Shown here: in pieces, positions 3,039-60,256 of the stretch
Layout of the letters: each line of letters begins with the position of its first letter
Numbering within the stretch: the first letter of the stretch is position 1
Assembly (NCBI GenBank): GCA_951406725.2
Contig: OX597831.1
Span: forward strand, 76,446,001 to 76,510,000
Direction of reading: 5' to 3'
DNA length: 64,000 nucleotides
Source of the DNA: Octopus vulgaris
Lineage: Eukaryota
Position numbers and translations under genes: made by a program
Notes under the pieces: generated by a model
Seen by the model: only the letters and a program-made list of their open reading frames with translations
What the model was told of the DNA's origin: nothing
The model's database searches: none

Positions 3039-3176
3039 TAATTTAGGGTATCTAAGAGATGCCTCCACGCAGGAAATAGCAGTCAAAACTTGACTCTAAA
3101 GCCACATTAAATGTTCATACAGCCCCAGGAGAGAAGATAAAGAGACAAAATAAACTAGCAAAGAAATTACTGGATA

Positions 3177-3235
3177 ATTCCAGATCCCGGACTTCTGACT
3201 TTGCATAAGAAATACTTGGCCATCATCAGTGGAAT
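3177..3235 (-). ncRNA. Type I hammerhead ribozyme motif (GAAG variant) in a putative Penelope pseudo-LTR fragment
   Basis: Minus strand AUUCCA-CUGAUGA-UGGC...GUCA-GAAG-UCCGGGAUC-UGGAAU: 6-bp stem I, 4-bp stem II, short stem III, AUC triplet; A15.1 is G. Confidence 0.7.
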
Positions 3236-3369
3236 ACACTCAGATCTTATACTTATTTATATATATATATATGTATGTATGTATGCATGTATGTATGCAT
3301 ATGTATGTATGCATGTATGTATGTATGCATGTATGTATGTATGCATATGTATGTATATACATACATATA

Positions 3370-5749: not shown

Positions 5750-5940
5750 TCGCGTGTGTACCGTTGGCGATTTTTTTTTCCTCCGTCTTCCCTTCTTTGG
5801 ATCTTTCCTTTTCCTATGTTTCTGACGAAGAGCTCCACCCGAAACGTTAAACCCTCCTTCTTTCCTTCTTTCCTGAGCGTCCAATAATACTATACTTGTT
5901 CCACGTCCTCGCGTTGTTGTGTTTTCATGTTTGGATTAAC
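5750..5940 (+). mobile_element. About 200-bp pseudo-LTR-like module with minimal hammerhead (5818-5852)
   Basis: GUUU-CUGACGA-AGAGCUCCACCC-GAAAC-GUU-AAAC. Near-identical copies at 6622-6826 (-) and 41746-41954 (+); all flanked by TA/TG microsatellite. Confidence 0.8.
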
Positions 5941-6624: not shown

Positions 6625-6826
6625 TAATCCAAACAAGAAAGCACAAAACAACACAACAACGCGAGGACGTGGAACAAATATAGTATTATTGGACGCTCAG
6701 GAAATAAGGAAAGAAGGAGGGTTTGACGTTTCGAGCGGAGCTCTTCGTCGGAAACATAGGAGAAGGAAAGATCCAGAGAAGGGAAGACAGAGAAAAAAAT
6801 CGCCAACGGTACACACGAGGTCACAT
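6622..6826 (-). mobile_element. Second copy of the 200-bp minimal-hammerhead module (core CCGACGA, 6721-6755)
   Basis: Reverse complement of 5750-5940; perfect GAGC/GCUC stem II and GAAACGUC-AAAC. Confidence 0.8.
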
Positions 6827-14997: not shown

Positions 14998-15112
14998 GCT
15001 ATAAATAATATATATGTGTGTGTGTGTGTATGTGTGTGTGTGTGTGTGTGTGTGTATGTATGCATCTATATATGCATATGTGGGTACAGGACGTCACCAA
15101 CTGTAAACAACA

Positions 15113-15310
15113 AGAGTGGCTGTGTGGTAAGTAGCTTGCTAACCAACCACATGGTTCCGGGTTCATTCCCACTGCGTGGCATCTTGGGCAAGTGTCTTCT
15201 GCTATAGCCCCGGGCCGACTAATGCCTTGTGAGTGTCTTCTACTATTGCTTCGGGCCGACCAGAGCCTTGTGAATGGATCTGATAGACGGAGACTGAAAG
15301 AAGCCCGTCG

Positions 15311-15346
<36 letters not shown>

Positions 15347-15543
15347 GGTCCCGGGTTGAGTCGGGGTTAACCACAGTAAATAAGGTACTCAATACATAGC
15401 AGAGTAAATTAATTTATTTTATAGAAGGAGCTTCTACAGGACTAGAACTGTTTCATTCAAAAGAAATCATCAGGAAGCTTCCTGATGATTTCTTTTGAAT
15501 GAAACAGTTCTAGTCCTGTAGAAGCTCCTTCTATAAAATAAAT

Positions 15544-15584
<41 letters not shown>

Positions 15585-25382: not shown

Positions 25383-25481
25383 ACTGATGAGGAAAGAGCA
25401 TGTCCATGTCGTGTGTGAATTTGTTCTTTTGTTGTGCTACTGTTCAATTTTGAAACTTATATACCTACATACACACAAGCA

Positions 25482-31997: not shown

Positions 31998-32015
31998 TAG
32001 ATATAGATCGAATTC

Positions 32016-32075
32016 GCGTCTTGTCCCAAGCTTCGAAACGCAGAGTAGATAAAACAGTGGACAACAGATGGAGGG
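32016..32075 (+). ncRNA. Non-circularly permuted hammerhead-like motif, core mutated (CAGAUGG)
   Basis: GCGU-C-UUGUCC-caag-CUUC-GAA-ACGC-linker-GGACAA-CAGAUG-GAGG; stems III (4 bp) and I (6 bp) are perfect. Confidence 0.6.
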
Positions 32076-32320: not shown

Positions 32321-32861
32321 TATTATATACATATATATTTATGTATATGTGTATGCGTGTGTGTATACATATACACATGTATATATATACATGTATGTCT
32401 GTGTATATATATATATATATTGATAAATACGGTAAGATAACAAAAGAAAGAAAGGGACCTCGATATCATGTAAATAGAGGCATTTATCTGTAAATGTAAT
32501 ATGTGACAATTATTCGGTAGCCATGATAAAACTCCGAGTTTCAGATGCCGAGGTGGAAATCGACGCCGCCATCTCTTCAGCATTTTCCCGATGGCCGGAT
32601 AACTGAAGAGATGGTCGCGTGGATTTCCACCTGGCATCCGAAACTCAGAGTTTTATCATAGCTACCGAATAATTGTCACATATTACATTTACAGATAAAT
32701 TTCCTCTATTTACATGATATCGAGGTCCCTTTCTTTCTTTTGTTATCTTACCGTATTTATCAATATATATATATATATATATACACAGACATACATGTAT
32801 ATATATACATGTGTATATGTATACACACACGCATACACATATACATAAATATATATGTATA

Positions 32862-34820: not shown

Positions 34821-35035
34821 GTCTATGTAAAAAAATACAAACTGATACAAGAACGCAAACATTTAGAAGATGATACAAAAAACACGGACGGGACATTCCT
34901 AGCCTTCAATCTTCAGTCAAGAACCGGATCATCCTCGCAATTTCGGCTGATTAATCTTGAGAATGCTCCGACATGGCCAGCCCCAAAGGAAAAACGACGG
35001 GCTTCTTTCCGTTTCCGTCTACCAAATCCACTCAT
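34530..35035 (-). mobile_element. SINE family A pieces split by a hammerhead-bearing insert (about 34820-34993)
   Basis: Tail at 34530-34745; short upstream piece at 34995-35035. Confidence 0.75.
34901..34966 (-). ncRNA. Non-circularly permuted hammerhead-like motif, second family
   Basis: Minus strand GCAUU-C-UCAAGA-uuaauc-AGCC-GAA-AUUGC-linker-UCUUGA-CUGAAGA-uugaa-GGCU. Confidence 0.65.
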
Positions 35036-38716: not shown

Positions 38717-40082
38717 TGTATGTATGTATGTATGTATGTATGTATGTATGTATACAGTCACTTACTTAACACAACTGCAAATATACACCTTTTTACCAGA
38801 AGAGAAAACTTTCTAATCGATAACTGCAGTATTTTAACAAGCCTAAACTCTGCTTATACCGAAACACTACGTGACGCTGTTGTTATGGTAACGTCCACGA
38901 CCCAGTGGCCCACTGGCACAAATAGGTCAGTGATACTCTTTTACTTGTTTCAGTCATTTGATTGCGGCCATGCTGGAGCACCGCCTTTAATCGAGCAACT
39001 CGACCCCGGGACTTATTCTCTATAAGCCCAGCACTTATTCTATCGGTCTCTTTTATGAGGTCTATCCAGAGTTGCCGCTCTTAGGTATTTTCCATTGATA
39101 ACGGAGCTAGAAACATCGATGTCTGGCAATCCTGATAGATGGTGACACTGGACAGATATGGTGTTTTTACACCTTTTTAACATGAGAGAACATTTTTCTC
39201 TACGGTAACTGCAGGGAATTTACCTTTTTGCAGTTGAAACATGTCACAGAACTAACCTAAACTATGCTTTTAGATGTCTTGCAAACAACTTGCACATGCA
39301 TTCCATATACCGGAAGCCAGCAAGTGTATGGGGTCATCAGGAGAGAATGCGCGCCGTACCTCTCGACGGCATCAATGCGCACCGGTCCCCTTCACTGATA
39401 TGAGGACCTGCTTGCTAGATCAACTGGTTATGAAATATAGCTCAATATTTCTCAAGCCATCGCTCATCGTCTCTCTTAAACCAAATCCAGTGGTTACCCT
39501 TCTCCACTGTAGTTTGCATGTCGGTCATGGTGGAATTCACTTTACGATGAGTTAGGCCTAACCATAACAACAGTCGTCTCACACTGTGTCCAACAAACCT
39601 TCTACACCCGACTTCGGTTGGAAAATGCTCAGCTTTCCAGCCACACACAAAGTTTACGGAATGGAATAGGAAAAATCCAGGCTACATATGTTTCACAGCG
39701 AGTGGAACCTCAGAAATAGTAAAATCCAGGTGAGGTGTATACTTCAACCCTGGTTGAAAACCACTGATCTAAGGGGGGCAATATACACCTGACGATCATA
39801 AGGCCGTGAGTTCCATTGCCGGCAGCACATTGTCTCCTTCAGCAAGGTACTTTATTTCACGTTGCTTCAGTCCATTCAGCTGGCAAAAATGTGTAGTATC
39901 ATTAGAGCGTCGGACAAAATGATTTGCGGCATTATTTCCGGCTTTACGCTCTAAGTTCAAAAACCGCTGATTTCGACTTACCTTTCCTCTTTTGAGATCG
40001 ATACAAATAAGTATCACTTGAGTACGGAGGGTGGGGTGGGTTGGATTGGGGTGGGGTGGGGCTTTTGATGTAATTGATCAAT

Positions 40083-41745: not shown

Positions 41746-41954
41746 ATGTGACCTCGTGTGTACCGTTGGCGATTTTTTTTCCCTCTGTCTTCCCTTCTCT
41801 GGATCTTTCCTTCTCCTATGTTTCCGACGAAGAGCTCCGCTCGAAACGTTAAACCCTCCTTCTTTCCTTCTTTCCTGAGGGTCCAATAATTCTATATTTG
41901 TTCCACGTCTTCGCGTTGTTGTGTTTTTTATGTGCTTTCTTGTTTGGATTAACT
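41746..41954 (+). mobile_element. Third copy of the 200-bp minimal-hammerhead module (41820-41854)
   Basis: Matches 5750-5940 and 6622-6826. Confidence 0.8.
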
Positions 41955-56220: not shown

Positions 56221-56242
56221 ATGTGTGTGTGTGTGTGTGTGT

Positions 56243-56540
56243 GTGGGTACAGGACATCACAACTGTAAACAACATGAAATGTTGTCTTCGAAGACAATTA
56301 CTCCTGTAACTTCCAAAATAAATTTTGGATTTTATGACGGGTTAAAGCTGGGAACAAAAACAGGCTCATATTTGTCGTTAAATTCTCGAAATGAGAAGTA
56401 GATAGACAGCCGACAACTGATGAAGTGTCGTTCTTTGTGTTACTTGTCCTGTTTTCGATTTTTTTTCTCTCGTCTGCGTATCTAACTCACTTGTTTTCGT
56501 ATTTTCATGTTATTTACGGTTGGTGACGTCCTGTACCCAC
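56243..56540 (+). mobile_element. About 300-bp module with inverted termini carrying a permuted hammerhead
   Basis: gtgggtacaggacatcacaactgtaaacaacatgaaa pairs with tttcatgttatttacggttggtgacgtcctgtacccac; related to about 32010-32205. Confidence 0.75.
56365..56427 (+). ncRNA. Non-circularly permuted hammerhead-like motif with intact CUGAUGA and GAAA
   Basis: CUCAU-A-u-UUGUCG-uuaaa-UUCUC-GAA-AUGAG-linker-CGACAA-CUGAUGA-AGUG; stem III 5 bp, stem I 6 bp, stem II weak. Confidence 0.7.
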
Positions 56541-56609
56541 ATATGCATACATACATGCATACATACACACAGACGCACACGCAGACGCACACACACACAC
56601 ACACATACA

Positions 56610-60173: not shown

Positions 60174-60206
60174 TTTGACGTTTCGAGCATAGCTCGTCGT
60201 CAGAAA
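60174..60206 (-). ncRNA. Minimal hammerhead, diverged relative of the 5.8-kb family
   Basis: UUU-CUGACGA-C-GAGC-UAU-GCUC-GAAAC-GUC-AAA. Confidence 0.7.
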
Positions 60207-60256
60207 GGGAAATGGAAAAATCCAGAGAAGGAAAAATATCACGTGTGTGGTTACAT

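Follow-up and report, generated by a model that had tools for sequence, protein, structure and literature searches.

A candidate S-G-C hammerhead motif with a predicted split core in a high-copy repeat of Octopus vulgaris

A motif on the minus strand at positions 34901–34966 of a 64,000-nucleotide stretch of Octopus vulgaris DNA (the whole stretch is called the window here) contains the conserved blocks of a hammerhead ribozyme in an order that is not circular. The locus raises the questions of whether the motif is a ribozyme, which strand completes its stem II, and what kind of element carries it. On our best reading of the sequences, it likely serves as processing ribozyme for a family of Penelope-like elements of the Naiad type, and the copy in the window is probably a shortened, inactive member of a high-copy animal repeat.

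The S-G-C motif in the window

From 34966 to 34901 on the minus strand, the blocks follow one another in the order site, GAAA and CUGANGA (S-G-C), which is none of the circular orders of type I, II or III. The hammerhead core elements CUGANGA, GAAA and NUH are all present. An earlier note, made from the letters alone, had described this arrangement, and its letters and strand order were read identically here. A pair-by-pair check reproduced its stem I (6/6 pairs, 34960–55 with 34917–22), its stem III (4/5 pairs, with a U-U at 34963/34940 beside the core) and its linkers of 6 and 14 nt.

A strict descriptor covering all six block orders matched twice in the window, at this motif and at a weak AT-rich one. 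The pattern described in the earlier note also held up in the shuffle control: among 2,598 dinucleotide-shuffled versions of the whole window it matched three, and among 3,241 of the low-complexity-masked window one, both rates being optimistic because the descriptor was shaped on this very match. A descriptor with an upstream stem II partner and both GAs of a kink-turn (see below) had the locus as its single match in the window and matched none of the 2,598 whole-window and 3,241 masked-window shuffles (0/5,839 in total). These results confirm that the motif is real and that its S-G-C order is beyond chance.

No Rfam family matched anywhere in the window at the gathering threshold, and a search around the locus at E up to 10 returned seven weak unrelated matches, with no hammerhead or kink-turn among them. 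Nested folding of this copy gave a probability of 0.0 for all five proposed helices, favoured competing hairpins and yielded a fold z-score of −0.65; it is uninformative for a knotted fold, because the program cannot form pseudoknots. Scans with the exact pattern found three loci in metagenome contigs, all chance matches lacking block C, and no match in genome contigs or in viral contigs.

A blastn search with the motif found no similarity to any other place in the window. The window also contains two decayed copies of a second family that share the S-G-C order and have similar linkers (Table 1); these and are most likely the "other two" motifs that the earlier note mentioned without coordinates. 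The one at 56365–56423 is flanked by 39-bp inverted repeats (window 56242–56541), an arrangement that may be a Penelope-like tail or an inverted arrangement. A further copy of the flank was seen at 15079–15115, and the copy near 32 kb ends in a similar tail.

Several other repeats of the window carry hammerhead-like letters. A Penelope-like family, whose repeats carry a minimal type I hammerhead-like motif of the ordinary kind, was seen at 5753–5900 (+), 6673–6817 (−), 41755–41902 (+) and 60174–60234 (−). The motif has the core, a short stem II, GAAA and a palindromic stem III; the core is changed in two copies, and no Rfam match was obtained for these repeats of the window. Short inserts beside microsatellites at 3100–3255 (−) and 25384–25460 (+), which start at or just before CUGAUGA, are possibly 5'-truncated copies of further families. 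Long near-perfect palindromes at 15410–15545 and 32540–32650, bearing a CUGANGA-like heptamer on both strands, are probably fold-back elements and not ribozymes. A candidate at 39725–39800 (+), with CUGACGA at 39789, was rejected: although 7 bp resembling stem I can form upstream and GAAA is present, an NUH site is lacking, and the candidate is either a chance match or a heavily decayed relative.

Table 1. Features of the locus and of the second S-G-C family (positions in the window)
Feature	Position	Strand	Remarks
Head of host SINE, outside the ribozyme	34995..35034	-	10 copies in the window
Non-coding insert, 5'-truncated; 3' end of high-copy repeat	34829..34993	-	In (TA)n tract of the SINE
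3' arm of putative extra hairpin Y	34983..34993	-	5' arm and upstream X' absent from this copy
Probable stem II 5' strand GGCUGG, from upstream scaffold	34977..34982	-	G10.1 = 34982; same position in the Naiad tails visible to us
Putative helix Z 5' strand and GA	34967..34973	-	Non-bulged strand of predicted kink-turn
Block S: stem III 3' side, U16.1, C17, stem I strand	34955..34966	-	U16.1 = 34962, C17 = 34961; predicted cut after C17, between 34961 and 34960
Block G: stem II strand UCAGCC, GAAA, stem III strand	34937..34950	-	GAAA = 34944–34941
Bulged strand of predicted kink-turn	34923..34936	-	3-nt bulge (34936–34), GA (34933–32), helix Z 3' strand (34931–27), 4-nt linker
Half-block C (stem I strand, CUGAAGA core)	34910..34922	-	
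Likely strand X (UUGAA and stem II strand of the earlier note)	34901..34909	-	Partner X' absent from this copy
5'-truncated, core-mutated copy of second family	32015..32071	+	In (GATA)n tract
Decayed S-G-C motif of second family	56365..56423	+	

Variation of the repeat family and the partner of stem II

The motif lies in an insert of about 165 bp, whose 3' boundary is approximate and extends to about 34821. Nine of the ten SINE heads in the window continue straight into (TA)n, whereas this one continues into the insert. A (TA)n insertion preference is seen at this one site and in loose ends from other copies, which open with (TA)n at 34953 and 34951. The insert was matched by 4,906, 3,924, 2,129 and 4,394 contigs in four public runs, which are numbers of contigs and not of copies; the public runs containing the stretch represent three organisms, and none of them is listed as RNA. 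Since thousands of contigs per run match, the insert is a high-copy, varied repeat. Three further runs, guessed to be RNA, gave 529, 198 and 43 matching contigs, counts that imply neither transcription nor cleavage.

Variation was tabulated by depth from contigs at least 80% alike, in rows that end before 34965–34993. The earlier note had predicted that genomic copies would repair the mismatch of stem III, and the majority letter at 34963 does so. The other letter made up 97.1, 99.2, 100.0 and 99.4% of the depth in four runs and 99.2–100% in a second set, so that the majority is consistent across seven runs in total. Because this letter accounts for 97–100% at 34963, stem III of the family is perfect, its site is AUC, and the copy in the window is privately defective.

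Between 34901 and 34964, with 34963 left out, variants at 2% or more were present at 1 of 12 core positions versus 21 of 51 other positions (Fisher p = 0.043, a weak value because the copies share ancestry). The sole varying core position was G12, which lies in a CpG (0–3.8%), and AGCC together with AAA, CUGA and GA of the core had no variant at or above 2%. The most variable positions were N7 (6–47% of depth), the bulge flanking stem III (11–58% at its position 1 and 18–34% at its position 3) and the five nucleotides after A9, UUGAA at 34909–34905, all of which varied (2–54%).

For stem II, the earlier note had paired AGCC (34948–45) with the GGCU (34901–04) that follows the core after 5 nt. 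All four of these pairs can form, but the upstream GGCUGG (34982–77) pairs 6/6 with UCAGCC (34950–45), including G10.1-C11.1, and this helix is the more stable (−8.3 versus −4.2 kcal/mol). With the upstream partner, the core is surrounded by stem I with 6/6 pairs, stem II with 6/6, and stem III, which has 4/5 in this copy and is complete (5/5) in most of the family. The downstream GGCU had no variant at 2% or more in three of the four runs and is thus well kept among the matching contigs. It is altered to GGGU in an 811-nt contig (run X21, record 17, identified by its equal depth of 89.5 and a 127-nt loose end), which keeps the upstream GGCUGG and carries a compensatory change from G-C to A-U in stem III. 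Furthermore, AAAACU replaces the downstream GGCU region in a subfamily seen in loose ends (25–31 contigs per run). An upstream partner is also found at the matching place in all seven distinct Naiad types visible to us (next section). The true stem II probably uses the upstream strand, and the downstream assignment is probably wrong.

The letters flanking stem III suggest a further structure. A kink-turn consists of a Watson-Crick helix, a bulge of three free letters, tandem G-A/A-G pairs and a second helix that opens with G-U. Its sequence pattern was found at 34973–63/34940–27 (helix, 3-nt bulge, tandem GA/AG and second helix), and stem III is predicted to be capped by a kink-turn-like motif. 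The GA at 34933–32 had no listed variant, and one subfamily contig has UA instead of the non-bulged GA. Helix Z would comprise four pairs in this copy and, as read by eye from the loose ends, five in the family.

Loose ends that extend past 34983/34993 indicate, by eye, that other copies have a long hairpin with CCAAGG/CCUUGG as its closing helix (hairpin Y). The copy in the window lacks the putative X' and half of Y, because it starts inside the 3' arm of Y. Upstream of the hairpin, the loose ends terminate in CUU or UUU just before Y, which would be the final three letters of this family's X'. CUU could pair with the three bases that directly follow A9 as two U-U and one G-C, as in the visible Beroe Naiad tail; alternatively, it would form three Watson-Crick pairs in the AAG subfamily. 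UUGAA, which the earlier note had regarded as an insertion, is likely to be the start of an extra helix, because the strand after A9 pairs upstream in Naiad tails. Two other pairings were discarded: that of the nine nucleotides after A9 with 34989–34983 of this copy, where loose ends show the 3' arm of Y, and one between the S-G linker and the bases that follow CUGAA, which is ruled out by topology.

Naiad 3' ends and known hammerheads

Naiad consensus 3' ends were read by eye in the part of the Craig 2021 supplement (PMC8557442) available to us, which covered 43 of 54 ends, mostly their last 330–450 nt; the pairings reported from them carry no covariation statistic. The S-G-C order with an upstream stem II partner appeared in 10 of the 43, representing seven distinct types and, by the table of that study, five phyla: Bfor, Chem-3, Amil, Aacu (one mismatch), Anas, Movir-2, Plae, EuTe, Obim and Ovul. 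The Esco end looks like a decayed eleventh case. The stem II pairs were read as GACACC/GGUGUC (Octopus), GGCUCC/GGAGCC (Acropora), GGCCCA/UGGGCC (Beroe), GGCCCC/GGGGCC (Pomphorhynchus), GACGCC/GGCGUC (Eulimnadia), GGGGAG/UUCCCC (Morbakka-2) and GGCC/GGCC (Clytia-3). All ten helices start with G10.1-C11.1, and their remaining letters differ.

The upstream part was visible in eight of the ten ends, and all eight have helix X/X' and hairpin Y, the latter located between X' and IIa. X/X' comprises 8–10 bp in Bfor, Chem-3 and Acropora and 5 bp in Plae, and is weak in Octopus. Stem I of the Beroe Naiad has 2 bp only. Naiad_Ovul/Obim share with the octopus insert its spacing and kink-turn pattern, in different letters, together with the (TA)n preference. 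The remaining 33 ends, many of them visible only in part, did not display this layout; they had different motifs or none in view. Exact motif searches of the available supplement found no sequence match in any Naiad tail, and the insert and the visible tails of Naiad_Ovul/Obim have no evident sequence in common.

The earlier note had proposed that unrelated families share this topology, suggesting an old, lineage-wide ribozyme class. The S-G-C layout does recur in several sequence-unrelated families, and more widely than in cephalopods, as it is seen in the visible Naiad tails of five phyla. The breadth of the proposed class is borne out, whereas its age can be gauged from that breadth only, and Naiads show horizontal transfer according to the parts of Craig 2021 (PMC8557442) available to us. 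The same parts describe Naiads as occurring as partial tandems and (TA)n as a preferred target. They report no canonical hammerhead in Naiads, even with relaxed descriptors, and mark only "HHR_core" or "HHR_half_core" in some families.

At the same place, the visible nematode Naiads (six named and two unnamed, by eye) have type-CSG hammerheads with an intact core. The C-S-G order of these hammerheads is represented by only two metagenomic examples in the accessible parts of Eckert 2023. Another conserved motif, located directly after the ORF, was seen in the visible 3' ends of bivalve, hemichordate and Clytia-1/-2 Naiads, that is, in three phyla; it is not a hammerhead and could be another structured RNA or ribozyme. 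The visible 3' end of Naiad-1_Movir carries, by eye, a twister-like motif at the place that the nematode hammerheads occupy. Since the nematode CSG hammerheads and the Movir-1 motif sit there, the Naiad 3' end appears to be a ribozyme slot.

Among known hammerheads, the S-G-C order has already been described (type SGC, HRIMA-1 and SGC variants; Eckert 2023, PMC10085705). In the parts of that study available to us, type-SGC RNAs cleave at 0.007–0.19 per min, CUGAnGA is separated from the stems by at most 1–2 nt, and in the crystal the interaction helix lies far from the end of stem III, although some SGC RNAs join the two directly. Because of that distance, a kink-turn would be one solution for joining the two. 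The octopus motif resembles type SGC, as described there, in its S-G-C order, the presence of all core nucleotides and a short linker between stems I and II. An extra helix between the flanks of Ia and IIa would be a further resemblance; the putative helix Z, with 4 bp in this copy and 5 in the family by eye, fits that role. It differs from type SGC in several respects. The type-SGC RNAs of the accessible text come from metatranscriptomes only, whereas the octopus motif lies in an animal genome. Their block C (Ia-CUGAnGA-IIa) is treated as indivisible, whereas here IIa would lie upstream of block S; the nearest downstream partner is 5 nt away and the better one upstream. In addition, helices X and Y are proposed to be inserted at A9/G10.1, and the kink-turn-like motif would link stem III to the interaction helix.

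The insert resembles Naiads (Craig 2021, PMC8557442, as far as available to us) in its (TA)n targeting, 3'-terminal position and ribozyme-like layout, with a spacing closest to that of Naiad_Ovul/Obim. Unlike Naiads, it is about 165 bp long without an ORF, and it has no evident match to the visible cephalopod Naiad tails. The N-terminal GIY-YIG and CxC regions and the RT ORF of Naiads are absent from it. Being so short and non-coding, it is at most a non-autonomous or truncated Naiad derivative.

Penelope-like hammerheads and non-LTR retrozymes (PMC4209133; bioRxiv 10.64898/2026.07.22.740005), in the parts available to us, share with the motif, as interpreted here, a place in the terminal repeat of a Penelope-like element or of a non-autonomous derivative, G10.1-C11.1 and an insertion between positions 9 and 10.1. 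In the same parts, these ribozymes are of type I in circular order, have a tiny palindromic stem III and work as dimers. Their insertion at 9/10.1 is one nucleotide, whereas two helices are proposed here. According to the accessible parts of the literature, active natural hammerheads can accommodate one additional nucleotide at the A9-G10.1 step (PMC1636495, PMC3705267, PMC4209133), and AUC is an uncommon triplet in nature but an active one (PMC1636495). Because natural hammerheads tolerate one extra base there, A9/G10.1 is a plausible site for larger insertions. A full-text literature search, covering few subscription papers, found no description of such a split core; what looks new is that the motif sits in an animal genome and that its core block would be split, whereas the S-G-C order itself is known.

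Proposed architecture and alternative explanations

From these sequence comparisons, it seems fairly probable that the full-length repeat RNA is a cis-cleaving Naiad-type S-G-C hammerhead whose core is split between A9 and G10.1. From 5' to 3', the first half would consist of X', hairpin Y, IIa, Z', IIIb, AUC with the cut, Ib and a short linker, and the second half of IIb, GAAA, IIIa, Z, Ia, CUGANGA and X. A9 would run into helix X instead of stem II, and X' would lead via hairpin Y to G10.1, a multi-way junction replacing the A9-G10.1 bond. Helix Z would bridge the flanking strands of IIa and Ia, like the type-SGC interaction helix between stems I and II, and the kink-turn would turn Z back where stem III ends. 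Cleavage after C17 would trim multimeric or read-through transcripts of the element to unit length. Unit-length or circular templates may be obtained from tandem transcripts, possibly by ligation, as proposed for Penelope-like elements, after which 3' fragments would be integrated into (TA)n by a reverse transcriptase/endonuclease of the Naiad type. The split core may, on the other hand, not fold.

A broader proposition appears slightly favoured over its negation: that Naiad-type elements of at least five phyla, together with non-autonomous repeats, use an active, non-circular hammerhead that is split at A9/G10.1, has the upstream scaffold X plus Y and, in octopus-like families, a kink-turn. 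It would represent a seventh wiring beyond the six-permutation scheme, with thousands of genomic copies missed by all descriptors applied to date.

Improbable, but the best surviving of the alternatives, is that the motif is a conserved, non-cleaving scaffold derived from a hammerhead, which binds the reverse transcriptase of the element or a kink-turn-binding protein. The split core has no precedent in the available parts of Eckert 2023, relaxed descriptors found no canonical hammerhead in Naiads in those of Craig 2021, and minimal hammerheads of the Penelope type are described in the accessible literature as cleaving poorly in vitro. Against these points stands the retention of CUGA, GA, GAAA, UH and G10.1-C11.1 in the seven unrelated Naiad types visible to us, with N7 free to vary. 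The occupation of the same slot by intact CSG hammerheads and a twister-like motif in other visible Naiads also argues against a mere scaffold.

Slightly less probable than a non-cleaving scaffold is a ribozyme that is formed across tandem or circular units in C-S-G order, with Ia-CUGANGA-X of one unit joining X'-Y-IIa, S and G of the next, so that multimers would be cut and monomers spared. The partial tandems of Naiads (Craig 2021, in the parts available), the C-S-G order seen in the visible nematode Naiads and the cleavage of Penelope-type hammerheads as dimers, known from the accessible literature, are consistent with such a ribozyme. However, one unit contains all partners, the short linkers (1–5 nt and about 13–14 nt) favour folding in cis, and helix Z would bind Ia within its own unit.

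An ordinary type-SGC hammerhead, with stem II formed by AGCC and the downstream GGCU and with UUGAA looped out, is doubtful and ranks below both. Its four Watson-Crick pairs out of four include G10.1-C11.1, its GGCU is free of variants at 2% or more in three of four runs, and it could form in truncated copies, as upstream sequence would be unnecessary. Nevertheless, the duplex is the weaker one (−4.2 versus −8.3 kcal/mol), and one contig and one subfamily have each lost GGCU, yet no variant of AGCC is listed. Moreover, no complement of IIb lies within 7 nt after CUGANGA in the seven Naiad types visible to us, and insertions of 5 nt are unprecedented in the available parts of Eckert 2023. A chance match inside the repeat, which the fitting of descriptors after the match was seen, the lack of a nested-folding signal and the lack of an Rfam match might suggest, is very improbable in view of shuffle rates of about 0.1% or less, a stem III repair that was predicted before it was found, and a layout that recurs in unrelated families.

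With the split-core hammerhead as the preferred reading, the family, and not this probably dead copy, is the object of interest for activity. If it cleaves, CUGAnGA could no longer be taken as an indivisible block; genome surveys would accordingly have overlooked a class, and engineered switches could be placed at the A9/G10.1 step. Non-circularly permuted ribozymes would move from environmental RNAs to animal genomes. Cleavage would also overturn the published view that Naiads lack hammerheads and would give a clade that ranks among the most abundant invertebrate retroelements an RNA-processing step open to testing.
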